Assembly: GCA_965263355.1 (NCBI GenBank)
Contig: CBDHHL010000056.1
Location: 672,001-736,000 of the forward strand
From: Leptolyngbyaceae cyanobacterium
Lineage (GTDB): Bacteria; Cyanobacteriota; Cyanobacteriia; Phormidesmidales; Phormidesmidaceae
Length of the DNA stretch: 64,000 bases
Direction of reading: 5' to 3'
Shown here: positions 4,574 through 49,980 of the stretch, one piece after another
Numbering within the stretch: the stretch's first letter is position 1
Layout: the number at the start of each line of letters is the position of its first letter
Notes under the pieces: generated by a model
What the model saw: only the letters and a program-made list of their open reading frames with translations
What the model was told of the DNA's origin: nothing
The model's database searches: none
Made by a program: the position numbers and the translations under genes

Positions 4574-5703
4574 GCGTATTATTTGACAACCCCGTACAGC
4601 CTGTGTTGGCAATGCCAGCCGATTTGGGCCAGTGGGAACGCACTGCATCTATGTCAGACCCAGCTGTGCGCTGGCGGATTTATTTGCACCAATTAGGCCT
4701 AAAGGCCATCATGTCATGGTTTCAAGAAGAATTTGATCAGACCATTCGCCCATGGCCCTATGCTGCTCCGTTTGATTATTGGCACATTGTTGATGGATTA
4801 AGCCTAACGTTAGGTGAAAGCCGCATTGTAGTCATGCTCTCTGAGGTGATCGAGGCAGCAGAACTTATCGTTCCCCAAGAATGGATTGATCTGTCTGGTT
4901 TATCTGCAGACTATTACATTGCTGCTTACGCTGATGTGGATAAACAGCAGTTAGTACTGTGGGGTTATACCACCTACGGTGAGCTTAAGTCTCAAGGTGA
5001 TTACGATGCCTCTGAACGCACCTATTGCCTTAGGGATACAGACCTGACCCAGGATTTATCTGCTTTTTGGGTGGCCCAACAAATGAGTCAACTGTCATCT
5101 GGGCCAATGAACCAGTTAAGTCCACTATCAACTGTTCAAGCTGAAAGTTTGATACAAAATTTGGCCAAGTCTTCTAAACCACGACTGTTGCTGCCATTTA
5201 GTCAATGGGGTGCTCTTTTGAGTAGTGACCACTGGCGACAGCAGCTATATCAACAGCGACAAACTAATGCTCCTGTCAGCATAGAAGACTGGCTGGAACA
5301 AATTTTTGAACAAGGTTGGTGCACGTTAGAATCATTACTTCCTCAGACGCCAGCTTTGCAGTTTCGATCAGCTGTTAACAGTGCGGCTGTTCTTACCTGT
5401 GGCAAAAAGATTTTCCTAAATACTGCACCGGATGATCTGTTGCTGATGTTTAGTGTGGATATCGAGGCAAACAAACGCCGCAATATCCGGATTCAACTCT
5501 ATCCATCGAGTGACACTCTGCTGCCGAATAATGTGATGTTAGCCTTGGAAATGTCGGAAACTGGAGAATTACTCAAATCTGTAAAAGCTGGGGACCATGA
5601 TGACTATATTCAAATTCCGCCATTTCGTTGTTCGGCGGGTCAACGGTTAAGGGTGCATATTCAACTTGCCGATAGTATTTGTCAAGAGGATTTTATTAGT
5701 TAA
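4570..5703 (+). CDS. DUF1822 family protein
   Basis: VPQEWIDL..ADYYIA..WGY motif, W-rich middle, IQLYP...IQL C-terminal domain; ATGA overlap with the upstream sigma-like gene. Confidence 0.8.
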   Translation: MSVLFDNPVQPVLAMPADLGQWERTASMSDPAVRWRIYLHQLGLKAIMSWFQEEFDQTIRPWPYAAPFDYWHIVDGLSLTLGESRIVVMLSEVIEAAELIVPQEWIDLSGLSADYYIAAYADVDKQQLVLWGYTTYGELKSQGDYDASERTYCLRDTDLTQDLSAFWVAQQMSQLSSGPMNQLSPLSTVQAESLIQNLAKSSKPRLLLPFSQWGALLSSDHWRQQLYQQRQTNAPVSIEDWLEQIFEQGWCTLESLLPQTPALQFRSAVNSAAVLTCGKKIFLNTAPDDLLLMFSVDIEANKRRNIRIQLYPSSDTLLPNNVMLALEMSETGELLKSVKAGDHDDYIQIPPFRCSAGQRLRVHIQLADSICQEDFIS

Positions 5704-22600: not shown

Positions 22601-24615
22601 AAGTAGACCTGCAAGGCACTAGCGATATCAGTAATATTGACAGTGTTGCCGACAATGATCTGATTCGTACTGCCGACAAGCGTCTACTCCTGGACTTTGG
22701 TGACCTGGGGATTCGTCTGGACAACAGTGAAGCTCTGGTATTTGGTCCTGAGCTAGCAGATGGTCGCCAATCTCTGTTTGTGGTGAGCGACAACAACTTT
22801 AATGCAGGGGCTCAAATCACTCAATTTCTTGCTTTTGCCCTTGATATTGAGTCTGCCCCTCAACCCACCCTATCTGGCTTTGCCTCTTTAGATGCCGATA
22901 CCCTGGCCCCCGGCCCTGACTCCGGTGTCAATGGCCCCATCAGTGACGAGCGTCCCGGTCCCTTTCCCGGTCAACCCGTTGGCGGTTGGAGTGGCGTTCA
23001 GTTTGCCGATGAAGACAGTCTCTGGTTTATTGTTGATAGCCTGTTTGGTGGCAACACAGATACGCTGCTTCGGGTCTACAAAGTAGATCCTGACTTTGCT
23101 GGGTTTGAAAATGGCGATGGCAGTGTGCTCTTAGAAGAAGAGTTTATTACCCTATCTGACCCCAACAACCTGGTACCGTTTGAAATCCAAAATGCAGATG
23201 ATCCCGCCCGACCTCTAACGGGTGCAGACTTTGATACAGAAGCCCTGGTGATTGATGCCAATGGGGATATTTGGGTAGGTGATGAATATGGTCCTTACCT
23301 GTTGCACTTTGACCGTAACGGTGTGCTCCTGGAAGCACCCATTGCCACCCCCAATATTCTCATTGACGGTACGGTGCCAGATGCCCCCAATGATGTGGTG
23401 CGGGCTCCCCAGCATCCTGATGTGGAGGCCGGGCTGGCTGAGTTTAACCTGCGGGGTTCCCGTGGATTTGAGGGCATTGGTTATAGTCCTGATGGCACCA
23501 TTCTTTATCCCATCCTAGAAGCACCTGTGGATGGCGATCCAGAGAATGCCCTGCGGATCTATCAGTACAATATTGCCACAGGTACCTATGCCGATGAGCT
23601 AGTCGGATTCTACCCACTGGATAATCCGGGTGATACTCCCACCTTCCAGTTGGGTGATCTAACCCCGATCAACGAGAGCGAATTCCTGGCCATTGAGCGG
23701 GATGACTTCCAGGGAGATGATGCGTTCTTCAAGAAAGTCTTTAAGATCGATATCTCCCAGGTGGATGAAAATGGCTTTGTTCAAAAAGAAGAAGTCATTG
23801 ACTTGTTGGATATTGCTGATCCCCAGGATCTCAATGGCGATGGCAGTCTGGTCTTTGATTTACCCATTACCAGCATCGAAGATATTTTGATCTTTGATGA
23901 GAGTACTGTGTTGGTGTCAGTGGATAACAACTATCCCTTTGGTAGCTTTGCCACGGGCCGTCCTCCGGCCTTGGATAACAATGAAATTATTCTGGTCAAT
24001 CTGCCTGAGCCGTTGAACCTTGACCCACGCCTGGGTATCGCTGGTTTGACACCGTCTGTTACCGTCGGTGAAGCTGGTGATGATACCTTAGTCGGCGATG
24101 TTGCTGACAATATTATTGCTGGTGGTCTAGGAGATGACATTATTGCTGGTGGTGATGGTGATGATATCCTGCGTGGCGATTTGAATAGCCGTGCGCCTCA
24201 AGGCAATGTGGGTGGTGATGACCTGATCTTTGGTGGGGCTGGCAACGATCGCATTGGTGGTAAAGGCGGCAATGACGAGCTATTTGGTGATGCTGGTGAT
24301 GACCTACTTTGGGGTGATGCTGGTGATGATCTGCTGCGGGGTGATCTCGGTAACGATACCCTAACAGGAGATAATTTCTCCGGTGGTTCTGGCAGTGATA
24401 CCTTTATTCTGGCCATAGGAGAAGGAACTGATATCATTACTGACTTTGAAGTGGGTAATGACCTGATCGGTCTTGCCGATGGGTTGACCTTTGACCAGTT
24501 GACCATTGGTCAGAGTGACGATGCGGCTGTGATCAGCGTTGGTGATGAAGACTTGGCATTGCTTAACAGCGTTGCTGCTTCGGCAATGACAGAGACTGCC
24601 TTTACTGTGGTCTAA
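19699..24615 (+). CDS. Giant secreted phosphoesterase: EEP domain + phytase-like domain with nested GDPD + second phytase-like domain + RTX Ca-binding tail
   Basis: RPDVVLINEFD, RLSSKSHWD, HPTPPVFDG, GDQNAD, SDHRLV (EEP); GGLSGI/DPEG/SDNNF (phytase-like); AHRGG..PEN, EVDV, HDDTLDRTT (GDPD); GGxGxD repeats. Confidence 0.88.
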   Translation: MSTDIRFASFNTFLNRPSEGELITNLSTPDDTQAQAVAEILQRVRPDVVLINEFDFDAANEGIELFQDNYLSTAQAAGLDPIDYPYVYNAPSNTGVAAGFDFDNNGEVVTEPGSVGYGNDSFGFGFFPGQFAQVLLSQYPIVEEDIRTFQNFLWRDMPGALLPADPEDVDGNGDTENWYTEEELEVFRLSSKSHWDIPIDVDGEVIHVLASHPTPPVFDGPEDRNGTRNHDEIRFWSDYVTPGAGTYIYDDAEYVAAGNTTPDNPSGGLAAGELFVVMGDQNADPFDGDSIPGAIQQLLNNPLINISVSPGSVGGEDGAIRQAGANVGQLGDPAFDTGDFNDAAPGNLRADYVLPSRDLDITEAASFWPSEGDDLFDLVGVGFPVVSSDHRLVYADVSIPEEPFNTRKTVAGVEFLGQAVFETGFEFAGTEVGGLSGITYDPLRDVYYALSDDRGNRSGPIPEAGSLSEYIGFSDGSYFIEVPDDEINDFFAWDEAYPDLVSAHRGGFITGFPENAIETFEHTLTFAPALLEVDVRRTADGEWILMHDDTLDRTTTGTGLVSETTLAEIQELQLVDNEGNVTEFKVPTLQEALEWADGKTILELDLKSDDFFEEVVQIITDLDAEDQTRFITQNLEQATGIYNLNPDIHLGLFITSSNQADVFAGIETAPFDFDNVSAFTGVRPETEEFYESLHNEGIVAIQGLFGDQDFFGASTFINDLTEEQRTELFETVYERGGDAIASDFYQPISELLDYSQSPLPRYYTVTIDINDGSLEDGDVTFTDVTALLDAEGNPFPAGELDPEGITLNSLGTLFISSEGDARNLVDPFVNEFSLTGQQIRELPVPEKFLPTEDESTGIRNNQAFESLTITPDQRTLYTATENALNQDGPRSSLTEESPIRILSYDLTTGEPAEEFLYISDTIPVPPVPEDSFADNGLVELLALDNAGTLLALERSFAVGVGNNLRLYEVDLQGTSDISNIDSVADNDLIRTADKRLLLDFGDLGIRLDNSEALVFGPELADGRQSLFVVSDNNFNAGAQITQFLAFALDIESAPQPTLSGFASLDADTLAPGPDSGVNGPISDERPGPFPGQPVGGWSGVQFADEDSLWFIVDSLFGGNTDTLLRVYKVDPDFAGFENGDGSVLLEEEFITLSDPNNLVPFEIQNADDPARPLTGADFDTEALVIDANGDIWVGDEYGPYLLHFDRNGVLLEAPIATPNILIDGTVPDAPNDVVRAPQHPDVEAGLAEFNLRGSRGFEGIGYSPDGTILYPILEAPVDGDPENALRIYQYNIATGTYADELVGFYPLDNPGDTPTFQLGDLTPINESEFLAIERDDFQGDDAFFKKVFKIDISQVDENGFVQKEEVIDLLDIADPQDLNGDGSLVFDLPITSIEDILIFDESTVLVSVDNNYPFGSFATGRPPALDNNEIILVNLPEPLNLDPRLGIAGLTPSVTVGEAGDDTLVGDVADNIIAGGLGDDIIAGGDGDDILRGDLNSRAPQGNVGGDDLIFGGAGNDRIGGKGGNDELFGDAGDDLLWGDAGDDLLRGDLGNDTLTGDNFSGGSGSDTFILAIGEGTDIITDFEVGNDLIGLADGLTFDQLTIGQSDDAAVISVGDEDLALLNSVAASAMTETAFTVV

Positions 24616-24643
24616 TCGTGGCTAAAAAGCGGGCTCAATTGTG

Positions 24644-24737
24644 GGGTATCAACTTTAGCTAGGGCATCTAGACCAGATCAAAATTCGGAGTTCGGAGTTC
24701 GGAATTCGGAAGTCAGAAAGGGTTTGTGCTGATGCCC
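24644..24737. mobile_element. Short MITE related to copies 1 and 2 (94 bp)
   Basis: Ends GGGTATCAACTT...GCTGATGCCC; flanks CAATTGTG / CAATTATG (7/8 match); internal (TTCGGAR)n repeat; absent from the paralogous 3' UTR at 33285-33325. Confidence 0.75.
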
Positions 24738-24764
24738 CAATTATGGGTCTGTCTTTAATTATTG

Positions 24765-24806
24765 AAAAGTGAGCAACGAAGTTAGTTTTCGTTGCTCACT
24801 TTTTTT
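24765..24806 (+). terminator. Rho-independent terminator
   Basis: AAAAGTGAGCAACGAA-loop-TTCGTTGCTCACTTTT plus T tract. Confidence 0.85.
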
Positions 24807-24908
24807 GAGCGAAAATTTTAATTGCCGTTTCTCCCATACATTGTTGCTGCAAGAATATCTGTATCCTTAAACATTAAGTCATTCAAAGTTTCCATAAGAA
24901 CTTTCATT

Positions 24909-24960
24909 CTTAAAGATTCCTTAGCGTTCCCTTATAAACGCCTCAATAGATTCCTATGGT
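24909..24960 (+). promoter_or_regulatory. Pho-box-like 11-bp periodic array
   Basis: CTTA at 24909, 24920 and 24931 and CTCA at 24942, followed by TATGGT. Confidence 0.4.
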
Positions 24961-24993
24961 GACGTGGAGAAGTCAGTTATCCAGATTTCTCTA

Positions 24994-25707
24994 CTAATTT
25001 TGTGTGTCAGGTTGCACCAAGGCAGATCGACTGTTAAAGGAGATCACAATTCGGTCTTGTTGTCCCTGGTACGGTAATCCACTGTGCATCAGATAGGAGG
25101 GAAAAAGCAGCACCATGCCATCCTTTAGTGGAGGATGAACATAGGGCGTATTCAGATATTGATTACCAAAATCCATATAGCTGTTGCCCTTCCATAGGGG
25201 CGAGTAAAATCGGTTGCTTCCATTGGGAGCAGCGGTTCCGTGCTGTTTGCCAGAATCACCAATTTGGAGATAGTAGATGCCACACCAGGAACATCCGGAA
25301 TGGTAGTGGGCATCGTGAAAACCACCATTATTAGTGATATGGAACCAACAGTCGGTAATCTCGACCTGAATCTGTTGTGGATGGATTGAATGGTTGTCAC
25401 CGTTGATCGGGTTGTCCACACCATTCACATGGGCTACGGCCATTTGCACACTTTCCTGCAGAAAGACTTTGAGTTTTTGGAGACCCGTATGATCGTAGGC
25501 CAACAGATCAAAATTGCTCTCGTACAGTCCATAGGCTGACTTGGCTCCGGGGGCCACACCGCTAGCAATATTGTTTGTCTGTTGAGTTTTCAAACCATAC
25601 AAAAAGTCTCGAATTCCAGATGCTTCTTGGGGATGCTCTGGCCACAGGCGGGCGTAAAAGTAAGTAGCCCAAAACGTTTGAACCATTAAGTCGGTTGCTT
25701 TAACCAT
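24994..25707 (-). CDS. Putative 2OG-Fe(II) oxygenase (TIGR02466-like)
   Basis: W.......GFHDAHYH...W.GIYYL, LFPSYL.HS, RIVISFN. Confidence 0.8.
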   Translation of the reverse strand: MVKATDLMVQTFWATYFYARLWPEHPQEASGIRDFLYGLKTQQTNNIASGVAPGAKSAYGLYESNFDLLAYDHTGLQKLKVFLQESVQMAVAHVNGVDNPINGDNHSIHPQQIQVEITDCWFHITNNGGFHDAHYHSGCSWCGIYYLQIGDSGKQHGTAAPNGSNRFYSPLWKGNSYMDFGNQYLNTPYVHPPLKDGMVLLFPSYLMHSGLPYQGQQDRIVISFNSRSALVQPDTQN

Positions 25708-25736
25708 ACAGACCTTTATTAGTTACCAACGGTATT

Positions 25737-28700
25737 ATGGATACAATTTCTCCGATTATCGTTAGTTTAGTGCCCAGCGATGACGCGCAGAATGTGGGCA
25801 CTCGTGCGAATTTAGTCATCACCTTTGATGAACCGGTACGTCCTGGCAGTGGCAATATTACGATTCGACGCAGTGCCGATGATAGCGTCGTTGAAGCCAT
25901 TGATGTTACGTCGGCCCAGGTTACGGCTGAGGGCAACTCGATTGTCGTTGATCCCTCAGCTGATCTGGATGTGGGTGTGGAGTACTACGTTCAGATTAGC
26001 GAGGGTGCGATTACTGACACCGCCAGTACCCAAGTTTTATTTACTGAAGACTTTGAAAGTCTACCGCTGCAGCCCTTTGTGAGCGACACGGAAATTGGGG
26101 GCGATGGTACCGACTGGACCGATGTGCCGCCGGAGGGCTGGACACGGGATAATACCACGACACCTGAAGGTGGACCGGTAGAATTCTTTGGTTGGACATT
26201 TTTGGATAAGGAGTCCTGGGCAACAACGGCAGGCGATCAGGATCGGAACCTGTACACTAACGGTACTGGCACAGTAATGGTGGCGGACCCTGATGAGTAT
26301 GACGATGGGGCCATCAGCATCAGCCCCAATAGCTTTAATGCCTTTATCACCACCCCAGACATTGACCTGACCAATATTGCAGCGGATACGTTAACCGTAA
26401 CGTTTGACTCCAGTTGGCGACCGGAAGACCTGCAGCGGGCGGGGCTGAGTGTTTCCTATGACGGGGGGGAGGCGGTCCCCATTTTTGAATGGACCTCTGA
26501 CCCGGCAGACCCGGTGTTTGATGTCAACAATCTCACTAGCAGCCCTACGTTTAAGCCGGATGGGCTACCCAGCGTCAATGAAACCCTGGAAATTACCCTG
26601 AACAATCCAGCGGATGCGAGCACAGCAAGTCTCACGTTTGGTGTGTTTGAATCAGGTAATGACTGGTGGTGGGCTGTCGATAATATTGTGGTGGCCGGAG
26701 ATGCAGTAGATGGTGTAGACAATGCCTTTGCTGGCATTGATGACAGTAGCACGTGGAATTTTACTGCGATCGCAAGTCTCCCTCCCGAAGTCGCCAATCC
26801 CCTGGGACAGGTTGCTGCCACAGTGGGTGAAACCCAGGTGGTGGATCTATTTGACCTGTTTGAAGATGCCGACAATGCCGACACTGAGCTAACCTATCAG
26901 GTGGTGAACAACAGCAATCCTGATGCCGTCACCGTCTCAGAAATCAGTGCTACCGATGGCCAGTTGAGCCTGACGGTAAATGAAGTGGGGCTAACGGATA
27001 TCACCGTAGAAGCAACAGACCCCAACGGTAGTTCTGTTACCTCCACGTTCCAGGTAAAAGGACAGACCACCGATGCCTTTGTCTTTGCAGTGTTGGGCGA
27101 TACCCAGGACTACAGTACCTTTGCACCGGAAGTGTTTGAAGCTCAAACCCAATGGCTGGTGGATAACCGGGATGCGCTGGGGCTGGAGTTTGTGGTTCAC
27201 GTCGGGGACGTGGTCAACGCCAACAATGAGTTTGAATGGATGCGGGCCGACGGGGCGTTGAGCATTCTCGATGGTGAGGTGCCCTACGCGATTTTGCCAG
27301 GGAACCACGATATGGGGGCTGGTGGTTCGGCCAACGTGCGTGATACGGATCTGCTGAACCAGTTTTTCCCGGTCAGTCGATTTGAAGATACGGCCACCTT
27401 TGGCGGTGTCTATGACCAGGAGCCCGATCGCTACGACAACAACTACCACACCTTCACCGCCCCCGATGGCACCGCCTGGATGGTGTTGTCCCTGGAGTTT
27501 GGTCCCCGTGATGATGTATTACGCTGGGCCAATGAGGTGGTAGCAGCCCATCCTGATCATCGGGTGATTATTTCTACCCACGATTACTTGAACTTTGACC
27601 AGCTCCGTCACAACTCCTTTGATGTATTGGGTGAAGGCGACCCCCGCACCAGCTACGGTATTGGTGATTCTGTCGAAGGGGCCAATGATGGCGATGACAT
27701 TTGGAACAAGTTTGTCCGCAAGCATCCCAATATTTCCTTTGTCTTCGGTGGTCATATTTGCGGCGACGGTGGCGGCGACCTGATTAGCTATGGCGACTAT
27801 GGCAATCCGGTGCATCAAATTTTGGTGAACTATCAGCGCTGTGTTTCCTCAGTAACTCGCAATGGGGTGAACGACACGGGCTACATTCGCCTGTTTACGG
27901 TGAATCCCAGTGACGGCTCGGTGGTGATGGAGAGCTACTCCCCTGTACTCGATACCTTTAATACCGAACTGGAAGGTACCCAACTGCGGGGCCAACAGTT
28001 TGTCTTTGAGAATATCGATCTGGGGACTCCCAACACTGTGTCCCGCGCAGATGCAGGGGACTATCAGGTGGTGACAGCAGCCGGTGAGACAGCAGCCGTG
28101 ACCCTGGATGGCAGTGGCACTAGCGACTCCAGCGGTGATGGATTGCAGTATCAGTGGACGAATGCTGAGGGGAACCTGTTGGCCACAGAGGCGACACCGA
28201 CGGTAGACTTGCCCGTGGGGATAAATGACCTGACCCTGACGATCACCGATACCAACGGGATTACCAATAGCGATACAGTTACCGTCGCCGTGCAAAATGA
28301 CGACACCCTGCTGTACGAAGACTTTAATGATGGCAACTTCGATGGCTGGACAGCACTGGATCAGGGCAATCTCCTGGGTAACTGGTACGTGACCACCGAC
28401 GGTCAACTCTATGAAAGCAGCAATAGCTTTAGCTCTACGGATGAGACTGAGCGCTCTGATCGTCGTGGCCCCATTCTCATTTGGGATGATGCAGCGGCCC
28501 AGGGGTGGACAGACTATGTGGTGGATGCCACCCTGCGATCCACGGATAACGATGGCATTGGCATTGTCTTCCGTTACCAGGATGAGAACAACTACTACAA
28601 GTTAGATCTCGATACCCAGACCAATATCCGTGCCCTTTATAAGGTGCAAGGTGGTGTGGAAACCACCCTGGCCATAGAGGAAAAGGGCTACCCCTTCAAT

Positions 28701-31700
28701 GTGGAGATGGACCTGCAGGTGGCTGTAGTCGGTAAGGAGATTGTTGCCACGCTAAACGGTGAGAGTATTTTTGACGCGCCGATTGTGGATAACAATCCTC
28801 TGATCCAGGGCACGATTGGGCTTTACTCCTACGGCCAGGACCAGTCCATTTTCGACAATATCATGGTCAATTTGCCAACGTTGACGGCCCAGGCGGGACG
28901 GGACCAGACGGTCAGCGATCGCACCGACAGCGGCACCGGCACTACCACCCTACAGGGGGCTGCATCCTTTGCTAACTCAGACGCGGCCATTGCCAGCTAT
29001 GAGTGGATTCTAGACGATACGGTGATCGCCACCGGCATCAATCCCACGGTCACGTTGCCTGTCGGTGAGAATAGGCTCACGCTGCAGGTGACTGACAGTA
29101 ACGGGACGGTTAGTACCGACGAGGTTGTGGTCACAGTTAAGTCTAACGACAGTGTGCTGCTCTTTGATGACTTTAACGATCAGACCTTTGATGGCTGGGC
29201 CATTATCGACCAAGGGACAGAGAATGGCCCGTCAAACTGGAATGCTGTCAGCGGTTCCCTGGGGCAGTTCTCGGATATTGCCAGTCCCCAAACTACAGGC
29301 ACCAATCCCAACGGCGATGTATGGCGGGGTCTTCGTAAAGGTACCCTGGCCATCTATGACCCTGCTGCTGTCAATACTCAACCCATCAACTTTGCTGAAG
29401 ACCGTGATGGCAACGGCACGCTTGAAACCATTGTGAAGCAACTGGACTTCGAGACCAGCGCAGGCGACTTATCCGGGTTGATTTCCTATAATCAGGAATT
29501 GTTAACTGGGTTAGGGACTGAGTCTCTCAATCCTGCCAACAGTCTGGAACTGGACATCGACTTCTTTGGCACGTTGCTCACAGAGGAGGACGACTTCGGG
29601 TTTGACTTCTTCCCGCAGCTGATCTTTGAGAATGGGGTGGCCACCGGCCTGGAATATCAGATTCTTAACGATGACCTGGCTTTCAGCGTATCCAGCGTAT
29701 CCGGCGACCTGACTGTTGACTTTGAACAGGGTCCCTCTGGTGCACCCACCTTAACGGGAACGGGAACTGGGGTAATTGTCCCCTTTAGCGACGGCACTGG
29801 TGGCAACACCGTTGACCCCGCTGTTGACCCTTACACACTAAACAACTATGCCCTGGAAGCCACACTAAATTCCGCTGACGATGACGGCATCGGGCTGTTG
29901 TTCTATTACCAGGATGAGAACAACTACTACAAGCTAGAACTAGATGCGGATGACGGCTTTAGCAAGTTGGTCAAACTGGTGGATGGCATCGAGACCACCC
30001 TGGCACGGGTACCCAACAGCTATGCCTCCGACACCGATCTGCAGGTGCGGGTGGAAATTAGTGATGTGATCGACGTGGATGCTGACGGTGTAGTACAAAT
30101 CCAGGCCTTTGTGGATGGGGAAGACCTGTTTGGTGGTCCCATCACCGATAGTGACCTGGCCAATGGTACGGTGGGTCTCTACTCTTGGGGCAGTGCAGGT
30201 GTTCGCTTCGATAATGTTGAAGTGACCTCCCTGGCCGATGACACCGTCCTCACCCCGGCTGATCTGTTTATCACTAGTCTCTCTCCTGAAGACGACGCGA
30301 CTAATGTGGCAGTAGACGCCGATCTAGTGGGGCGCTTCAATCGGGATGTGCAGACGGGCAGTGGCAATATTGTTATCCGACAAGCGTCCGATGATAGCGT
30401 CGTTGAGACCATTGATGTCAATTCCGATCAGGTGACGGTGCTGGAGAATACGGTGACGGTGGATGCGATCGCAGACCTTGCCCCCGGTACCGACTACTAC
30501 GTCCAAATCGAAGCCGGTGCCTTAGAAGACCCCACGGGCATCACTACCCTTTTCTTTGAGGACTTCGAAGATTTGGCTACCGACCTGGGTCCCTTTGTCA
30601 GTCCCAGTGAGAGTGGCGGTGACGGCACCGACTTCACCAATACCCTGCCCGACGGCTGGAGTCAGACCAACACAACACCTGCAGGTGGCCCCATTGAGTT
30701 CTTTGGCTGGACCTTCCTGGATGCCAGTGCCTGGGTAGAAACCGCAGGCGACCAGAATCGTAGTCAGTTTACCAATGGCTCCGGTGTAGTCGCCGTGGCC
30801 GACCCCGATGAATACGACGATGGCGATACCGACATCGACCCCGATCAGTTCCAGGCTGCCATTACGACTCCTGAAATTGACCTGACGGGCGTTAATGCAG
30901 GCAGTGCTATCCTCACCTTTGACTCCAGTTGGCGACCTGAGGATCTGCAAAAGGCGCGAGTAACTGTCTCCTTCGATGGCGGTGAGGCGACGGAACTCCT
31001 GCTCTGGACCTCCGACCCGGCGGATGCCAACTTTAAGCCCGATGCCACCAACGAAACCCTCGCCCTCGCCCTTGATAATCCTGAGGGAGCCACCAATGCT
31101 GTGGTCACCTTCGAGGTATTTGAGGCCGGTAACGACTGGTGGTGGGCCGTGGACAATATCGAAGTCAAGGGCAGCACTGGGGAAGGACAACCCTTTGCAG
31201 GCATTAGTGACGACAGCACCTGGAACTTCAGCACCCGTCCTCTGGATACCCAAGCACCCCGCGTCATTAGCTTTACCCCGGCTGACAATGGTGTGGATGT
31301 GGCCGTGGATAGCAATCTGGCGATTCAGTTTGATGAGCCAATTCAAGCAGGTGTGGGTACGGTTGCGATCGCCACGGTTGCCGACGACACCATCGTTGAA
31401 ACCATCGATATCACCTCCGACCAAATCACCATCAGCGGCGATACCGTCATCATTGATCCAGCTAATGACCTGGCCAACGGCACCGACTACTATGTCCAGG
31501 TCGATGCAGGGGCCATTCAAGACACCGCCAATAATCCCGCTGCCGGTATCAGCAACTCCAGCAACTGGAACTTTGCCACGGTTGAGTCTGCCGACCCCGA
31601 TCTGATCAACGTCTTCTTTGAAGACTTTGAGAGCTTGAGCACCGATCTCGGTCCCTTCGTCAGTACTAGTGAAAGCGGTGGTGACGGCACGGACTTCACC

Positions 31701-33284
31701 AATACTCTGCCCGACGGCTGGAGTCAGGTGAACAATACCCCGGCTGGCGGCCCCCCTGAGTTCTTCGGTTGGACTTTCCTGGATGCCAACTCCTGGACAA
31801 CCACAGCAGGGGACCAAAACCGCAGTGAGTTCACCCGCGCCAGTGGCGTTGTCGCCGTCGCTGACCCCGACGAATACGACGACGGAGCGATTAGCATCGA
31901 CCCGGATCAGTTCCAGGCCGCCCTTACCACCCCTGAAATTAACCTTTCTGGAGCCGCTGCGGGGACGGCCCGAGTCAGCTTTGACTCCAGTTGGCGACCT
32001 GAAGATCTACAAAAGGCACGTCTGATGGTGTCCTTTGATGGCGGTGAGGCCATTGAACTGTTCCAGTGGACCTCCACCCCTGCCGATGCCACCTTCAAAC
32101 CCGATGCCACCAATGAGCGGGTCATCGTGGATCTAAACAATCCAGAAGGAGCCACCAATGCCGTCCTCACCTTTGAGGTATTCGATGGCGGTAACGACTG
32201 GTGGTGGGCTATAGACAATATCTCTGTCGATGCCCTGCCAGTTGAACAAGAGAGCATCATTCTCTTCACCGAAGACTTTGAAAGCCTGGAGCCTGTCCTG
32301 GGTCCCCTCGTCAGTCCTAGTGAGAGCGGTGGAGACGGCACCGACTTCACTGCCACCCTACCCGAGGGTTGGAGTCAAACCAACGACACCCCCACTGGTG
32401 GCCCCGAAGAATTCTTTGGCTGGACCTTCTTTGATTTCAACTCCTGGGTAACCACTGCCGGTGACCAGGACCGGAGTCAGTTTACCAATGCCTCTGGTGT
32501 AATCGCAGTGGCTGACCCAGATGAGTATGACGACGGCGACATCAGTATTGATCCCGATCAGTTCCAGGCTGTTATTACGACTCCTGACATTGACCTGATG
32601 GAGTCTGCTGCTGGCACCGTAGAAGTCACCTTTGACTCCAGCTGGCGACCTGAAGATCTGCAAAAGGCCCGCTTGATGGTGTCCTTTGACGGTGCCGAGG
32701 CCATCGAAATCTTCCAGTGGACCTCTACCCCCACCGATGCCACCTTTAAGCCAGATGCGGCCAATGAGAACCTCACGTTTGCCCTCGACAATCCAGAAGG
32801 AGCCAGTACCGCTGTTCTCTCCTTTGAAGTGTTTGACGGTGGCAACGACTGGTGGTGGGCTATCGACAACATTGTGGTAAGTGCGACAACAGAACCAATC
32901 GACCCAGTTGTTCCAGTAGAGCCTGTTCCACCCACTACTTTGGTAGGCGTCGCCTCCTTTGTTACGGTCGGTGAAACAGGTGATGATATCTTAGTTGGCG
33001 ATGTTGCTAGCAATATTGTTGCCAGTGGTCTAGGGGACGACATCATTACCGGTGGTAATGGTAGTGATACCTTTATTCTGGCCATCGGTGACGGCACTGA
33101 CACCATTGTTGACTTTGAAGTGGGCACTGACCTGATTGGGTTAACCGATGGGCTGACCTTTGAGCAGTTGTCTTTTGGTCAGCGTACCAATGCTGCTGTG
33201 ATCAGCGTTGGTGATGAGGATTTAGCATTGCTTAACGGCGTTGCTGCCTCAGCCTTAACTGAGAGCGTCTTTACTGTAGTCTAA
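25737..33284 (+). CDS. Giant (2515 aa) acidic secreted protein: SbsA-like Ig domains, 4 GNDWWWA repeat domains, calcineurin-like metallophosphoesterase, PKD-like and lectin-like domains, RTX-type tail
   Basis: GDTQ, HVGDVV, PGNHD, STHDY, GGH metallophosphoesterase motifs; repeated FEDFE..FFGWTF..ADPDEYDD..FDSSWRPED..GNDWWWA; two DxDGIG..F.YQDENNYYKL domains; C-terminus homologous to 19699..24615. Confidence 0.85.
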   Translation: MDTISPIIVSLVPSDDAQNVGTRANLVITFDEPVRPGSGNITIRRSADDSVVEAIDVTSAQVTAEGNSIVVDPSADLDVGVEYYVQISEGAITDTASTQVLFTEDFESLPLQPFVSDTEIGGDGTDWTDVPPEGWTRDNTTTPEGGPVEFFGWTFLDKESWATTAGDQDRNLYTNGTGTVMVADPDEYDDGAISISPNSFNAFITTPDIDLTNIAADTLTVTFDSSWRPEDLQRAGLSVSYDGGEAVPIFEWTSDPADPVFDVNNLTSSPTFKPDGLPSVNETLEITLNNPADASTASLTFGVFESGNDWWWAVDNIVVAGDAVDGVDNAFAGIDDSSTWNFTAIASLPPEVANPLGQVAATVGETQVVDLFDLFEDADNADTELTYQVVNNSNPDAVTVSEISATDGQLSLTVNEVGLTDITVEATDPNGSSVTSTFQVKGQTTDAFVFAVLGDTQDYSTFAPEVFEAQTQWLVDNRDALGLEFVVHVGDVVNANNEFEWMRADGALSILDGEVPYAILPGNHDMGAGGSANVRDTDLLNQFFPVSRFEDTATFGGVYDQEPDRYDNNYHTFTAPDGTAWMVLSLEFGPRDDVLRWANEVVAAHPDHRVIISTHDYLNFDQLRHNSFDVLGEGDPRTSYGIGDSVEGANDGDDIWNKFVRKHPNISFVFGGHICGDGGGDLISYGDYGNPVHQILVNYQRCVSSVTRNGVNDTGYIRLFTVNPSDGSVVMESYSPVLDTFNTELEGTQLRGQQFVFENIDLGTPNTVSRADAGDYQVVTAAGETAAVTLDGSGTSDSSGDGLQYQWTNAEGNLLATEATPTVDLPVGINDLTLTITDTNGITNSDTVTVAVQNDDTLLYEDFNDGNFDGWTALDQGNLLGNWYVTTDGQLYESSNSFSSTDETERSDRRGPILIWDDAAAQGWTDYVVDATLRSTDNDGIGIVFRYQDENNYYKLDLDTQTNIRALYKVQGGVETTLAIEEKGYPFNVEMDLQVAVVGKEIVATLNGESIFDAPIVDNNPLIQGTIGLYSYGQDQSIFDNIMVNLPTLTAQAGRDQTVSDRTDSGTGTTTLQGAASFANSDAAIASYEWILDDTVIATGINPTVTLPVGENRLTLQVTDSNGTVSTDEVVVTVKSNDSVLLFDDFNDQTFDGWAIIDQGTENGPSNWNAVSGSLGQFSDIASPQTTGTNPNGDVWRGLRKGTLAIYDPAAVNTQPINFAEDRDGNGTLETIVKQLDFETSAGDLSGLISYNQELLTGLGTESLNPANSLELDIDFFGTLLTEEDDFGFDFFPQLIFENGVATGLEYQILNDDLAFSVSSVSGDLTVDFEQGPSGAPTLTGTGTGVIVPFSDGTGGNTVDPAVDPYTLNNYALEATLNSADDDGIGLLFYYQDENNYYKLELDADDGFSKLVKLVDGIETTLARVPNSYASDTDLQVRVEISDVIDVDADGVVQIQAFVDGEDLFGGPITDSDLANGTVGLYSWGSAGVRFDNVEVTSLADDTVLTPADLFITSLSPEDDATNVAVDADLVGRFNRDVQTGSGNIVIRQASDDSVVETIDVNSDQVTVLENTVTVDAIADLAPGTDYYVQIEAGALEDPTGITTLFFEDFEDLATDLGPFVSPSESGGDGTDFTNTLPDGWSQTNTTPAGGPIEFFGWTFLDASAWVETAGDQNRSQFTNGSGVVAVADPDEYDDGDTDIDPDQFQAAITTPEIDLTGVNAGSAILTFDSSWRPEDLQKARVTVSFDGGEATELLLWTSDPADANFKPDATNETLALALDNPEGATNAVVTFEVFEAGNDWWWAVDNIEVKGSTGEGQPFAGISDDSTWNFSTRPLDTQAPRVISFTPADNGVDVAVDSNLAIQFDEPIQAGVGTVAIATVADDTIVETIDITSDQITISGDTVIIDPANDLANGTDYYVQVDAGAIQDTANNPAAGISNSSNWNFATVESADPDLINVFFEDFESLSTDLGPFVSTSESGGDGTDFTNTLPDGWSQVNNTPAGGPPEFFGWTFLDANSWTTTAGDQNRSEFTRASGVVAVADPDEYDDGAISIDPDQFQAALTTPEINLSGAAAGTARVSFDSSWRPEDLQKARLMVSFDGGEAIELFQWTSTPADATFKPDATNERVIVDLNNPEGATNAVLTFEVFDGGNDWWWAIDNISVDALPVEQESIILFTEDFESLEPVLGPLVSPSESGGDGTDFTATLPEGWSQTNDTPTGGPEEFFGWTFFDFNSWVTTAGDQDRSQFTNASGVIAVADPDEYDDGDISIDPDQFQAVITTPDIDLMESAAGTVEVTFDSSWRPEDLQKARLMVSFDGAEAIEIFQWTSTPTDATFKPDAANENLTFALDNPEGASTAVLSFEVFDGGNDWWWAIDNIVVSATTEPIDPVVPVEPVPPTTLVGVASFVTVGETGDDILVGDVASNIVASGLGDDIITGGNGSDTFILAIGDGTDTIVDFEVGTDLIGLTDGLTFEQLSFGQRTNAAVISVGDEDLALLNGVAASALTESVFTVV

Positions 33285-34540: not shown

Positions 34541-34873
34541 ATGACTCTAGCAATTGCCCTTGAACCTGCACCTATAGAGACGGATATCCATGGGGTTGTA
34601 CGAGTTGCTAAAACTCGTGTCACCTTGGATACCGTTGTAACGGCTTTTCTTGAAGGATGTACATCTGAAGAAATAGGTGAGCAATATACATCGCTAGAGC
34701 TATCAGATATTTATCTAGTTATTGGTTACTACCTCAGACATCGGGATGAGGTGAATGCTTACTTGGCAGAGCGGCAACGTCAGGCGGATGCGATTCGGCA
34801 GGAAGCCGAACAACGGTTTAATCCAGTTGGAATCCGTGAACGTTTGCTTTCTAGACAGAGTCAGGTCAGGTAG
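34541..34873 (+). CDS. DUF433 family antitoxin
   Basis: RVAKTRVTLDTVV..F..G...EEI...Y..L.L.DIY..I.YYL. Confidence 0.9.
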   Translation: MTLAIALEPAPIETDIHGVVRVAKTRVTLDTVVTAFLEGCTSEEIGEQYTSLELSDIYLVIGYYLRHRDEVNAYLAERQRQADAIRQEAEQRFNPVGIRERLLSRQSQVR

Positions 34874-34879
34874 CCAAAA

Positions 34880-35233
34880 ATGATTAAGTTTCTGGCTGAC
34901 GAAAATTTTAACAACCAGATTGTAAGAGGCGTCCTTCGTCAAAATCCAGATATTGATATTGTACGTGTTCAAGATGTCGGCTTGAAAGGGGCAGATGACC
35001 CGGATGTGTTATCTTGGGCTGCTCAAGAGAAACGGATTGTGTTAACCCATGATGTTGCTACGATGATAACGTTTGCTTACGAACGGATTCAAGCAGGTTT
35101 ACCAATGCCTGGATTATTTGAAGTTAAGCGACGTGTTCCGGTAGGATTAGTTATAGAAGAGATTCTTTTAATTGCAGAGTGTAGCCTTGATGGGGAGTGG
35201 GAAGGGCAGGTAAGATTCTTACCTCTCAAATGA
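34880..35233 (+). CDS. DUF5615 PIN-like toxin
   Basis: FLADENF, GL.GADD..VL.WA..E.RIVLTHD. Confidence 0.9.
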   Translation: MIKFLADENFNNQIVRGVLRQNPDIDIVRVQDVGLKGADDPDVLSWAAQEKRIVLTHDVATMITFAYERIQAGLPMPGLFEVKRRVPVGLVIEEILLIAECSLDGEWEGQVRFLPLK

Positions 35234-35250: not shown

Positions 35251-35333
35251 GTCTAACATAACGCAGGAGCGGACTGAACTTAAGTATCGGCTAATCTGAA
35301 AGATGCTGGCAGGCGCTCAGCTTCACGTTCGGC
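35251..35333 (+). other. attC-like recombination site 1
   Basis: R'' GTCTAAC, 5 nt, L'' GCAGGAGC ... L' GCTCAGC, 5 nt, R' GTTCGGC; lies just after the toxin stop. Confidence 0.65.
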
Positions 35334-35740: not shown

Positions 35741-35827
35741 CCCGAACACTGCGTTGGAGTGGTCTGAGCGAGAAATATCGGATAAAATTAAAAAGTGTTG
35801 TACAGCTGCTCAGCTCCACCGTTCGGT
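35741..35827 (+). other. attC-like recombination site 2
   Basis: R'' CCCGAAC, 5 nt, L'' GTTGGAGT ... L' GCTCAGC, 6 nt, R' GTTCGGT. Confidence 0.65.
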
Positions 35828-36006
35828 AGTAGTTATAGCGTTTTTTTAGTTTTCTATAATTGAGCCACTGTCAGACAGCCTGGAGTGGTCTGAGCGAGAA
35901 ATATCGGATAAAATTAAAAAGTGTTGTACAGCTGCTCAGCTCCACCGTTCGGTAGTAGTTATAGCGTTTTTTTAGTTTTCTATAATTGAGCCACTGTCAG
36001 ACAGCC
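35755..36006. repeat. Exact 126-bp tandem duplication
   Basis: 35755-35880 is identical to 35881-36006. Confidence 0.95.
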
Positions 36007-36774: not shown

Positions 36775-36951
36775 ATCGGGATAGGGAGAATCCTCACGAA
36801 TCCCCCCTCCCACACCACCCGGCATGCGGGTCCGCACCGGGCGGTTCAGTATCACGGAGCAAACACTAACCTGCGTCATCAAACGTAGCCTTGGGCTTTC
36901 ATCCACAAATCTCGTATCGACAACAATCCCTGTTGTGCTAACCACTCATTG
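36775..36951 (-). mobile_element. Group IIC intron 3' remnant (end of RT ORF, domains V-VI)
   Basis: Minus strand GAACCGCCCGGTGCGGACCCGCATGCCGGGTGGTGTGGGAGG...CCCTATCCCGAT; preceded by NEWLAQQGLLSIRDLW resembling an RT/maturase C-terminus. Confidence 0.88.
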
Positions 36952-41989: not shown

Positions 41990-42471
41990 TAAAGTAGCAA
42001 GTAATATCTCTGTTATATTGCCTCCCTCAATAAATCTCAAGCTCACTTACAACAACCCCACACTCTACAAGATGGGTGGCTTTCCTAATTGGGCTCCCCA
42101 AAACTGTCCAGAGTGTTGACGTTGGAGGAGTTTAGAAAATTATTAATTATTAAAGATGTAAGTGATTAACCTAAAGCTTCTTATGCCGCATAACATAGGC
42201 CCTGAGGCGGACGAGGTCAATAGCAAAGGCTAAAATTCTTTTTCTGCTTTAGCTTTAGCGCGGATTCAGACGTTCAAAATTGACCTAATAGTCAGGTGTT
42301 CAGGGAGACTGAACCTGCGCTATTAGATGGGGCTGCGTTGCTGAATGATCATTGATACGGGTTAGCTGTTCATAAGATATTTCTCCAAGTGACTGCATAG
42401 AGTGCTCGATCTTGTTTTGGTTGTTACTGTTTTTATTGCTTGTTTTCAAGTGCAATTTGTTCTTCTTGCAC

Positions 42472-43755
42472 TTATTGTTTAGGTTGTTGTTGAACGCCTA
42501 ATAGCTTTACTAGTGGTGATTTTTTACGTCTCAGTGCAGCCAGATATTTCTCCTCGTCATAGGGTACACCATCTTGCCAACAACGCCAGAGAATTCTCCC
42601 CCACTTATAGGCCAAGGCTCGAATCGCTTTTTGATGTGACTTACCCTTTAGTCGTTGTTGTTGATAAAACGCTTGTGACCAAACCGAGCGAGGCCTGGCA
42701 TGAGCAACCCACTCGACAAAGGTTTGTCTTAGAAAGATGGGGCAAGACCAACGCCAATGAACCCATCGCTTTTTGCCACTCTCTTCTTTGACTGGCGCGA
42801 TGCCAATGTAACTCAAAAAAGACTGAGCGCAATTAAAGCGAGTTCGGTCTTCACCAAAGGCCGCTAACAATCGTGGCGCTAAATGAGGCCCAGCCCCTGG
42901 CAATGCCTTAAAAAGTTCTGCATCCGGCAGCGATTCAAATAACGAGGCAATTTGACGCTCAAACACAATCAATTGCGACAAGACTACTTTCAATAAAGCG
43001 ACTAAGCCTTGCATTAACGCTTGGGCTGGAATGGTGATAGCGTCGTCTCGCGTCAAGGGTGGCCCAGCGTCTTGAATTTGCTGAGTTCGCCGTTGAATCG
43101 TGGTTTTGCGAATGATGTGATGGCTACGAAAGAAGTCTCTCAAGACATCAGCTGTAGCAGCTTGAGCCTCTTGTAAATTGGGAAACTGTTCAAGGAATTC
43201 ACAAAACGCAATGGTGTCTTTATCTTCAAACCAGTCGAGCACTTGAGGAAAATAGGATTTGAGTGCGGCGGTGATCCGATTCGTCAGCCGGACCTTCTCA
43301 CCCACTAACATGCGACGGGACTCAACCCATTGTCTCAATGCACGATGCTTCGGACAACCTGATGTCCAGATATCAAGTTTTTCACCATGTTTTTGCATCA
43401 ATTCGACGATCAGTTTGGCATCGATGGGATCCGATTTGGCCCGCGAGGGCTGAAACGCTTTGCGATAGTTCGCGACCGTTCGAGGATTAACGGGCACCAG
43501 CACCAAATTCTCGTATTGACATAGGCCATAAAGGAGGGGGCCGCGTTTCTGCTCCAACCCAACCAGCAACTTGGACTCTCCATAGGTTTTTCGTAAGCGA
43601 TTGACCCAATCTGCAATGGATTGGGGCTTGGATTGAATCGTGCAATGCTCCCAGGTTTCGTTCTGGCAGTCATAGAGCGCAATATCATGTTTACGATCTG
43701 CCCAGTCAATCCCGATATAAGCCGCATATGCTGTTGGACTTTGATTGAGTTTCAT
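42472..43755 (-). CDS. IS110-family transposase/recombinase
   Basis: DEDD RuvC-like motifs YIGIDWAD, GLEQ, KSDPIDA; LPGAG; GIAP...ESG serine loop. Confidence 0.95.
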   Translation of the reverse strand: MKLNQSPTAYAAYIGIDWADRKHDIALYDCQNETWEHCTIQSKPQSIADWVNRLRKTYGESKLLVGLEQKRGPLLYGLCQYENLVLVPVNPRTVANYRKAFQPSRAKSDPIDAKLIVELMQKHGEKLDIWTSGCPKHRALRQWVESRRMLVGEKVRLTNRITAALKSYFPQVLDWFEDKDTIAFCEFLEQFPNLQEAQAATADVLRDFFRSHHIIRKTTIQRRTQQIQDAGPPLTRDDAITIPAQALMQGLVALLKVVLSQLIVFERQIASLFESLPDAELFKALPGAGPHLAPRLLAAFGEDRTRFNCAQSFLSYIGIAPVKEESGKKRWVHWRWSCPIFLRQTFVEWVAHARPRSVWSQAFYQQQRLKGKSHQKAIRALAYKWGRILWRCWQDGVPYDEEKYLAALRRKKSPLVKLLGVQQQPKQ

Positions 43756-43798
43756 TGTGCTAAATTGAGGGTGTTTTTGTTTGACGGAGAGTCTGCCA

Positions 43799-44066
43799 CC
43801 AGTCGCCTTGCGAAGTGATTATGGAAAGGGTTATTTCCCTGCTCCCTGAGGATTCGTTGGGCAGCGATTGGACTGGCTTGAAGGGCGATTCGATATGTTA
43901 GTAGTCATCTTCTGACTGGCGCTGCATAGTCGTCCCCCCAAGCTAGCAGATTCTCTCCTTTCTTGACTCTATGCTTTTTTCCAGATTTAGAACATCTAAA
44001 GGGAGGAGCGATACGATATGTTAGTAGACATCTATACTGTCGTCCAATGCATAGTCGTCTCCTCCC
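43799..44066 (-). ncRNA. Candidate bridge RNA with three stem-loops (two target-type, one donor-type)
   Basis: Hairpins at 44001-44066, 43876-43943 and 43799-43876; compensatory change GACA/TGTC vs GTCA/TGAC; G-U pairs favour the minus strand; loops match element ends and flanks. Confidence 0.75.
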
Positions 44067-44171
44067 GTTTTTCTATGCTCGTCCCCCCATAAATCCCAAT
44101 GCACACCGACCATACAAAGGTTGAATTCTTAGAACTCAATTTTGGTGACGGCGGGTGATTGGGAACGTTTT

Positions 44172-44393
44172 CTAGGTTTGTTCTAATTCTTCTAATAACG
44201 TTTCGATAGCTTGCAGCTTACTTTCATACTGCTGTACCCGATAAGTTAACTCATACTTTGCTTCTGAGTCTGACTTAACTGTTAGTTCCTGCTTCAGCCA
44301 CTTTAACTTTTTTCGAATCTCCTGATACTCTTCTTCAAGATCTTCACGTTTTTGTTGAATGCGTCTTTGAGCAGCTGTTGAAGAAAAAGACAT
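44172..44393 (-). CDS. Small coiled-coil protein (resembles cyanobacterial effector-associated domain EAD9)
   Basis: QRRIQQKREDL...Y....KL..L...L....D...K..L pattern; family call from memory only. Confidence 0.45.
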   Translation of the reverse strand: MSFSSTAAQRRIQQKREDLEEEYQEIRKKLKWLKQELTVKSDSEAKYELTYRVQQYESKLQAIETLLEELEQT

Positions 44394-44637: not shown

Positions 44638-44776
44638 GGGTATCCACTCAAGCCGGGAAATTCTGGTTAAGTAGGAATCTAGAATCCAGGAGCCAGAATT
44701 TAGAAGGGATATGGTTTCTGACTCCTGACTTCTGACGTCTATCCTTAGGAAAACTTCCCGCTTTAAGTTGGTACCC
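44638..44776. mobile_element. MITE copy 2 (139 bp)
   Basis: Near-identical to 886-1023; 8-bp direct repeat TATGGTTA at 44630-44637 and 44777-44784. Confidence 0.9.
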
Positions 44777-49138: not shown

Positions 49139-49980
49139 ATGAAAATTAAGTACCTTTCTACTCTTATTGCTGCCTCAATTGTTAGTGTTACCACTGTAAT
49201 TGCGCCTACTCAGTTTATTACTGCCCAAGCCAATCCTTGTGCAGCTACTGCCCAAGCTAACCCTTGCGCAGCGAATCCCTGTGCAGCGAATCCTTGCGCA
49301 GCTAACCCTTGTGCAGCTAACCCTTGTGCGGCGAATCCCTGTGCGGCGAATCCCTGTGCGGCTAACCCTTGTGCGGAATCCCTGTGCGGCTAACCCTTGT
49401 GCGGCGAATCCCTGTGCGGCGAATCCCTTGTGCGGCTAACCCTTGTGCGGCTAACCCTTGTGCGGCGAATCCCTGTGCGGCTAACCCTTGCGCAGCTAAC
49501 CCTTGTGCGACAGCAGCCAATCCTTGTGCAGCAGCGACAGCGTCTGATATCCCAGCTGTTTTTTCTGATCCTCAAGCGGACAACAATCTGGCGATCCGAG
49601 GCTATGACCCAGTAGCTTACTTTACAGCTGGTGCACCTGTTGAGGGGAGCAGCAGCTATGAGTATGAGTGGAATGGTGCTACCTGGCGTTTTTCTAGTGC
49701 CGCTAATAAAGCACTGTTTGCGGCTAATCCCGAAACCTATGCACCTCAGTATGGTGGCTATTGTGCTAAGGCCTTAAGTGAAGGCAATATTGCTTCAACC
49801 GTGCCTGAGGCCTGGGATATCGTTGATGGCAAGCTTTATCTAAATTACAGTCTGGATGTGCAGAAACAGTGGAAGGGAGATGTGCCTGGTAACATTGCTA
49901 AGGCTAATGCCCTATGGCCGAATATTCTAAATACTTCCAATGTTGTGTACTACGACACCGTTGGGGCTGTTTATTTCTAG
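49139..49980 (+). CDS. Secreted NPCAA-repeat plus YHS-domain protein, frameshifted within the repeat in this sequence
   Basis: Signal peptide (AQA); 19 NPC motifs; AIRGYDPVAYF, F.S..N...F..NP..YAPQYGGYCA, I.DGKLYLNY, I.KA...WP. Confidence 0.8.
49226..49533 (+). repeat. 15-bp tandem repeat (GCN AAY CCY TGY GCN)
   Basis: Read directly; units vary mainly at synonymous positions. Confidence 0.95.

Follow-up and report, generated by a model that had tools for sequence, protein, structure and literature searches.

A cyanobacterial IS110-group element in an integron attC site and its predicted bridge RNA with two target-binding loops

The window (the whole stretch of DNA that was analysed, 64 kb in length) contains an attC site interrupted by an IS110-family insertion sequence. 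The element carries an intact recombinase gene and, in the non-coding end upstream of this gene, a predicted guide RNA with three loops. The features of the locus are as follows.

42188..42194, plus strand: R'' box of attC, the left half of the split site by its sequence, joined to 44092 in the empty allele.
42195..44091, minus strand: IS110-family insertion sequence, lying antisense to attC; its 1897 bp count the single shared base (42195 or 44092) once.
42200..42207, minus strand: left-donor sequence at the element 3' end, matched by the left donor guide.
42206..42215, minus strand: imperfect sub-terminal inverted repeat, 9/10 match to its partner at 44078-44087.
42215..42220, minus strand: outward -35 box TTGACC of a putative promoter.
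42472..43755, minus strand: intact DEDD bridge recombinase of 427 aa (Pfam PF01548, E 4e-27; PF02371, E 3e-15).
43810..43857, minus strand: donor-binding loop, predicted from guide matches to the joined ends of the element; right donor guide at 43818-43824 (7/7 to the junction as corrected below), left donor guide at 43844-43851 (8/8 to 42200-42207).
43880..43939, minus strand: target-binding loop 2, next to the donor loop, predicted from fold and guide matches; right guide CTAACAT at 43895-43901, reading the R'' side; left guide TGCAGCGCC at 43918-43926 (5/9 to the window site).
44001..44066, minus strand: target-binding loop 1, the extra loop upstream, predicted from fold and guide matches; right guide CTAACAT at 44018-44024, reading the R'' side; left guide TGCATTGGA at 44043-44051 (8/9 to the window site).
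44092..44173, plus strand: rest of attC (6-nt spacer, L'', variable terminal structure, L' and R').
44095-44103, plus strand: left-target match for the guide, inside the right half of attC.
44098-44105, plus strand: L'' with an extrahelical G, part of the split attC.
44167-44173, plus strand: degenerate R', part of the split attC.

The limits of the insertion are seen in an uninterrupted allele. Logan contigs of runs X1, X2 and X3 (contig depths of 22.2, 23.7 and 5, respectively) join 42194 to 44092, skipping 1897 bases, and one base at the joint fits either side. The three runs, all of organism A and from one study with two samples, may include the source of the window and are therefore not independent; the carriers of the empty allele may be a sister strain or a subpopulation. 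The first-pass annotation had proposed that an IS110 insertion splits an attC-like site and that an empty site might be found in related strains. The split is borne out by this allele together with the attC covariance score given below, and the empty site is present in the contigs of the three runs; in five close genomes, a search with the right flank matched only a short repeat. One contig of run X1 covers 42205-44092 with zero differences, and the contig depth over the element in this run (53.9 versus 22 and 21 for the flanks) gives at most a hint of further copies. The junction rows of relatives show that the element ends are conserved.

The core shared by element and target is a single T on the minus strand, since one base is shared in the empty allele and the AT at 44093-94 is part of the spacer of attC. 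The AT letters at 42195-96 and 44093-94 had been read correctly; the 1898-bp excision with a 2-base AT core that was built on them, and the longer junction that goes with it, are rejected by the empty allele, in which 1897 bases are skipped and one is common. Across 43 left junctions of relatives, the bases at the AT position are TT (23), GT (11), AT (6) or others (3), and TAT stands directly before the target GT(T/C) in 41 of 45 right junctions. As the crossover register moves by one base, the predicted circle junction becomes one T shorter than the sequence first proposed, which the empty allele shows to be one T too long; the right donor guide, fully matched to the corrected junction, would match the earlier one at 6 positions.

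The TTGACC at 42215-20 on the minus strand faces outward as described before, and the corrected circle junction would set a TATTAT (-10) 17 nt from it, the integrated state being TATGTT. For junctions built likewise, this spacing is 17-18 nt in 39 of 43 relatives; the remaining four have one T more, probably a 2-base TT core, and a right guide changed to match. The 3'-end motif CTCAG(G/A)G is found in 45 junction rows, having formed part of the search pattern, and the sub-terminal 10-bp repeat shows a best match of 4-10 of 10 across relatives. The joints listed for the contigs, in which rare forms are dropped, do not include the circle junction. A natural end-to-end join in the corrected register exists in locus L053 (~4660-4690), the left flank of which is a 3'-end remnant of a related element fused to the 5' end of the L053 element as a donor-type junction, possibly by donor-donor recombination.

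The target of the insertion is a genuine cyanobacterial attC. The rejoined DNA is, as had been noticed, an imperfect palindrome, and it folds as an attC-like hairpin: the bottom strand reaches -15.2 kcal/mol, with none of 300 mononucleotide shuffles as low, and for the top strand 5 of 300 shuffles are as low. A covariance model, the means of scoring suggested earlier, was made from 30 intact attC sites in loci of relatives, in the alignment of which 95% of cells are paired and compensatory changes occur in 9 of 15 pairs (0/500 shuffles). Its match to the right half of the split site (44092-44166; 30.1 bits, E 4e-5) begins at model position 8, which is the base directly following R''. The score is partly circular, as a rule taken from the window site helped to seed the model. 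The circularity spares the position of the model matches beside intI. The R' box is degenerate, as already recorded, and for this reason a rule-based attC scan missed the rejoined site. The R''-L'' spacer had been given as 5 nt; it is 6 nt in the empty allele, and five relatives show the same length in 13 of their 14 intact sites of this sequence type. Rfam returned no model for the split site or for the guide RNA.

Five related genomes contain 25-87 matches to the attC model each, some in arrays beside integron integrases, and an intI above the TIGR02249 cut-off is present in four of the five. In G006 contig C1, for instance, intI lies at 607110-608045 and the attC-model matches at 610093-620812. 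An antisense model match abuts 43 of the 58 unique left flanks of relatives, so that attC targeting is a property of the lineage; the other 15 flanks are without a model match, one of them being a mis-called end. The copy in the window sits in a solitary, probably stranded attC, because no intI was found in the 64 kb, no cassette ORF directly precedes R'' (a LysR gene ends ~200 bp upstream), and R' is degenerate.

The upstream end of the element (336 nt) folds better than shuffles (z -3.8, 0/100), and the downstream end (276 nt) no better than shuffles (z -0.4, 60/200). The earlier placement of a guide RNA upstream of the ORF agrees with this structured end, from the loops of which the guides can be read. 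An internal repeat (78% identity over 55 nt) forms the two target loops, each copy being a stem, an internal loop and an apical hairpin. Each has a left guide of 9 nt and, as right guide, CTAACAT, complementary to the junction on its R'' side. The two loops share this reading of the attC R'' box and differ in their left guides, and the left guide precedes the right guide in all three loops. Among 27 aligned ends, the loop scaffolds and right guides are near-invariant and the left guides variable, with compensatory changes in 20 of 47 consensus pairs. In the consensus fold the closing stem of loop 1 pairs with the element 5' end, and in the single-sequence fold it pairs locally. The predicted bridge RNA would consist of two target-binding loops and one donor loop; its expression, circle formation and handshake role are assumed by analogy with IS621, as described in the available parts of PMC11208160, PMC11208158 and bioRxiv 2025.05.14.653916.

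A survey of loci L001-L100 and the window gave 80 donor-loop matches, the rows including repeats of one record. The left end was recognisable in 63 rows: 44 have two loops, 17 have one (15 with short ends, two with long ends in which the pattern missed one loop), and two have none that was recognised. To compare guides and sites, duplicates, flanks <14 nt and L053 (with its donor-like left flank) were left out, and a register shift of 0-3 nt was permitted. The best fit among 36 unique sites was to loop 1 in 22 and to loop 2 in 13, with one tie, and the best-of-two match exceeded permutations (p 5e-5, optimistic like all p-values here, since sites are related by descent and the register is free to slide). 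At several sites both guides fit poorly (5-6 of 9).

Our preferred reading, to which we give a probability of roughly 0.7, is that an ISEsa2-related IS110-group element inserts antisense into attC just inside R'' and uses two alternative target loops. The second target loop probably lets a single element reach two attC variants, as far as guide and site sequences can tell. It is unlikely, though the strongest of the competing readings, that loop 1 alone selects sites and that loop 2 is a structural or processing part of the RNA; loop-2-like sites would then come from mismatch tolerance, given the right guide and a shared TGCA, or from related elements in trans. Most of the signal is indeed in loop 1, which tracks sites with 0/20000 permutations as good, against p 0.37 for loop 2 alone (p 0.04 given loop 1), and half-match insertion is reported for IS621 in the accessible part of bioRxiv 10.64898/2026.08.31.748434. 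Against this reading, loop 2 occupies the position of the sole loop in one-loop relatives, 73-81 nt before the donor loop, and these single loops track sites (12 sites, p 0.002); moreover, the left guide of loop 2 takes different attC-type sequences, as expected of a guide.

A choice model over the attC pool (40 sites, 82 choices, three wobble weights, the pool leaving out 14 loci picked by a loop-1-type pattern) was best with two loops under all three weights. With half weight for wobble, logL was -164.9 for two loops, -168.7 for loop 1 only and -174.9 for loop 2 only, and loop 1 took a weight of 0.59. The gain from loop 2 was reached by random attC-derived guides in 3, 0 and 0 of 200 trials (0/200 at half wobble weight) and by loop-2 guides permuted among elements in 16, 9 and 12 of 200. 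When each guide pair was limited to one site, random guides reached it in 1/100 twice and permuted loop-2 guides in 15 and 8 of 100. Part of the reason why permuted guides match the gain this often is that the same loop-2 guide recurs in many elements.

The genome of Leptothermofonsia ETS-13 holds five donor-loop-pattern matches in all, every one to the same element, with copies 99.2-99.7% identical. One site of these copies is of loop-1 type (7 vs 4 of 9) and is not an attC-model match; three are of loop-2 type (7 vs 4; 6 vs 3, the 16-base flank of the latter being seen twice). Three sites fitting loop 2 in a genome with one element alone argue against selection by loop 1 only. Taken as a whole, there is strong support for loop 1 choosing sites and moderate support for loop 2 doing so, the latter helped by the position and conservation of loop 2. 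The window copy itself would have been placed by loop 1, judging from 8/9 versus 5/9 matches. At a threshold of at least 7/9, the two window guides match 12 and 4 of 47 intact attC arms, together 16, in a set that included the 14 loci picked by a loop-1-type pattern.

On the preferred reading of two alternative loops, transposition would proceed as follows. The element would form a circle, as IS621 does, and a promoter completed by the joined ends (TTGACC, 17 nt, TATTAT) would drive transcription of a bridge RNA of ~300 nt and of the recombinase. One recombinase dimer would take the donor loop and the circle junction and the other dimer either target loop and an attC, with strand exchange at the single shared T; bases after the right target guide might then pair with donor-derived DNA in a handshake. 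The same right guide in both target loops would read the conserved R'' box and the differing left guides two variants of the variable spacer/L'' arm, so that the element would carry two alternative addresses for one diverse class of sites. According to the available text of PMC11208158, the target and donor loops of IS621 act as separate modules from two RNA molecules; a second target loop would therefore need no new chemistry. Related elements could also act in trans.

A further role for the two loops, besides that of alternative addresses, would be to synapse two attC sites and recombine them, an integrase-independent, RNA-guided excision or shuffling of cassettes. Both loops address the same attC register, and such sites form direct-repeat arrays in these genomes; all the same, we consider this improbable.

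The age of the second loop bears on whether it could be a neutral tandem duplication or an assembly artefact. Loop 1 of different elements shares a scaffold identity of 0.77 and loop 2 one of 0.78, and loops 1 and 2 share 0.67, within the same element or not. On the recombinase tree of 48 proteins (21 dual), which has long branches and an unsure root, the dual label needs two changes against a shuffled mean of 14.1, in keeping with a single gain and a single loss, the latter in L025. These identities and the two changes point to one old duplication that was kept, and, loop 2 being the one in the position of the sole loop of one-loop relatives, loop 1 is the added module. A neutral or artefactual origin might be read from L025, which lost a loop, apparently by recombination between repeats, and from L012 and L064, which carry insertions in a loop. 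Such an origin is rejected as very improbable, both scaffolds being conserved in a single old duplication with copies that are still 78% alike; dozens of independent records contain two-loop copies, the identity of their recombinases reaching down to ~65%, and the X1 contig without differences speaks against an artefact.

The exceptional loci deserve description. In L025 (4785-4900), a one-loop element is nested among two-loop ones, and an intI gene lies in the same locus; the element keeps a loop-2-type guide in a loop-1-like position at a loop-1-type site, which suggests, at the level of sequence, loss of a loop by deletion between repeats after insertion. L012 has an element of ~100 bp with short terminal inverted repeats (~4640-4745) directly behind the loop 1 right guide, and its site fits loop 2 better. 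In L064, 25 nt are inserted in the closing stem of loop 2. The element is patchy in distribution, because the donor-loop pattern matched in 9 of 172 genomes of the order; a strict pattern found one genome in an even sample of 401 cyanobacterial genomes and missed its own centre genome. At the protein level, 6484 matches came up at E ≤ 0.001, the majority from outside this clade. Among viral contigs there was one match, a tandem repeat that by eye is without the layout of the element.

In family placement, the protein combines a DEDD RuvC-like domain with a Tnp domain carrying the catalytic serine, and D17, E68, D109, D112 and S326 (motif positions) lie in motifs matching the catalytic set of IS621, to which it is similar at E 1e-11. 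With the non-coding end and its loops complementary to target and joined ends, it belongs to the IS110 family, and the Pfam domains, the empty allele and the attC model together sustain the first-pass view of an attC-targeting member of this family in a cyanobacterium. The guide RNA upstream of the ORF and the bottom-strand match 5' of the top-strand match are those of the IS110 group; two target loops with one donor loop depart from its canonical one of each. One mixed trait is the imperfect sub-terminal repeat of 10 bp, longer than that of IS621, the repeat in the IS110 group being absent or short and imperfect. The nearest named recombinase is that of ISEsa2 (42% over 408 aa, 337 bits).

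Insertion into attC, antisense and near its 5' end, is shared with the IS1111-attC group, in which the element had first been filed. Least probable of all the readings, membership of this group with a 2-base AT core draws on the target type and orientation, which are as for ISPa21 and ISPst6 in the available part of PMC3001079, and on the 10-bp imperfect repeat, and is rejected by the upstream position of the guide RNA (the IS1111-type seekRNA lies downstream with the top-strand match first), by the guide order, by the one shared base of the empty allele and by the recombinase, which scores ≤45 bits against five IS1111 references. Phylogeny, proposed earlier as a check, groups the recombinase with ISEsa2 and outside the IS1111 clade, the five IS1111 references forming a separate 100/100 branch in the tree, which is without ISKpn4, ISPa21 and ISPst6; ISEsa2 is 16.3% identical to each of these three in the portion seen of the source data of PMC11187229, and the guide-order rule for the two groups is from the available text of the same paper. 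The element appears, on sequence grounds, to work like IS1111-attC elements without being a member.

Bridge RNA mechanisms have been known as a class since 2024, at least from the available part of PMC11208160, and IS1111 members and group IIC introns are known to target attC, as the accessible sections of PMC11187229 and PMC3001079 describe. As far as the available text of the IS621 papers goes (PMC11208160, Durrant et al. 2024; PMC11208158, Hiraizumi et al. 2024), the window element resembles IS621 in a DEDD plus serine recombinase, an upstream guide RNA, internal loops with the bottom-strand guide before the top-strand guide and, here by sequence, a donor loop spelling the joined ends, a junction promoter and handshake-like bases. 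It differs in having two target loops instead of one, a single shared base where IS621 has a CT core, left guides that leave 1-3 nt to the crossover and accommodate attC spacers of 5 or 6 nt, a sub-terminal repeat of 10 bp instead of 2-3 bp, and a protein that is distantly similar.

With ISKpn4, ISPst6, ISPa21 and ISPa25 of the IS1111-attC group, it shares RNA-guided insertion at one attC end, antisense to the cassette array, as presented in the parts available of PMC11187229 (Siddiquee et al. 2024) and PMC3001079 (Leon et al. 2010). Unlike these, so far as the same parts describe them, the window element is on another branch of the family, with an upstream guide RNA, the opposite guide order, two target loops and cyanobacterial attC sites as targets. 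ISEsa2, of the ISEsa2/ISCfr13/ISCps4 cluster of IS110, resembles it in the 3' end and in an upstream non-coding end whose donor loop opens with the same motif; the one ISEsa2 copy examined lies outside attC, and by eye no second loop was seen in it. For the IS1111-attC group, Tetu and Holmes 2008 and Post and Hall 2009 are also cited. Group IIC-attC introns, by the available account of PMC3001079, are likewise RNA-based mobile elements entering the attC bottom strand; they are unrelated, being reverse-transcriptase retroelements and not DNA recombinase elements.

In the text of openly accessible papers, neither a two-target-loop bridge RNA nor the present cyanobacterial lineage was found described, and no two-loop RNA appears in the available parts of PMC11208160, PMC11187229, bioRxiv 2025.05.14.653916, 2026.08.14.744561 and 2026.10.21.760802, and PMC13604230. 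In the one paper found to join IS110, bridge RNA and attC, attC occurs only among the references. The lineage is a second IS110-family branch converging on attC, beside IS1111-attC elements and group IIC introns. Characterised bridge RNAs have one target and one donor loop; the window RNA, if correctly read, would be a natural multi-guide bridge system, would show how a mobile element follows a diverse class of sites (16/47 attC arms by both guides) and would provide a ready-made scaffold with which one RNA could address two sites. It would also give a guide-based handle on the little-studied cyanobacterial integrons. Targeting of attC by other IS110-group elements may already lie unremarked in public data; some of the target sequences in a supplement of Durrant et al. 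2024 appear to resemble attC bottom strands.

Elsewhere in the window, three more attC-like sites lie on the plus strand at 35251-35333 (26.6 bits), 35741-35827 (43.1) and 35870-35953 (20.0), on the same strand as the split site, with a DUF433/DUF5615 gene pair (34541-35233) upstream of them. The third is inside an exact 126-bp tandem duplication (35755-36006), and the group looks like a decayed cassette cluster without an integrase. At 36775-36846 on the minus strand there is a remnant of group II intron domain V/VI just above the Rfam cut-off, and no intron protein was seen among the listed ORFs nearby. A repeat of ~135 bp occurs at 886-1023 and 44638-44776 (copies 97% identical); with a contig depth >1000 in run X1, against ~21 for unique DNA, and many loose ends, it is a high-copy MITE-like element. 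An Ala-Asn-Pro-Cys-Ala repeat protein at 49139-49980 is broken across frames by apparent small frameshifts in an array of 15-bp repeats, possibly an assembly error. The stretch 19699-33284 holds two ORFs of great length (1638 and 2515 aa), which contain internal repeats and have a higher G+C.
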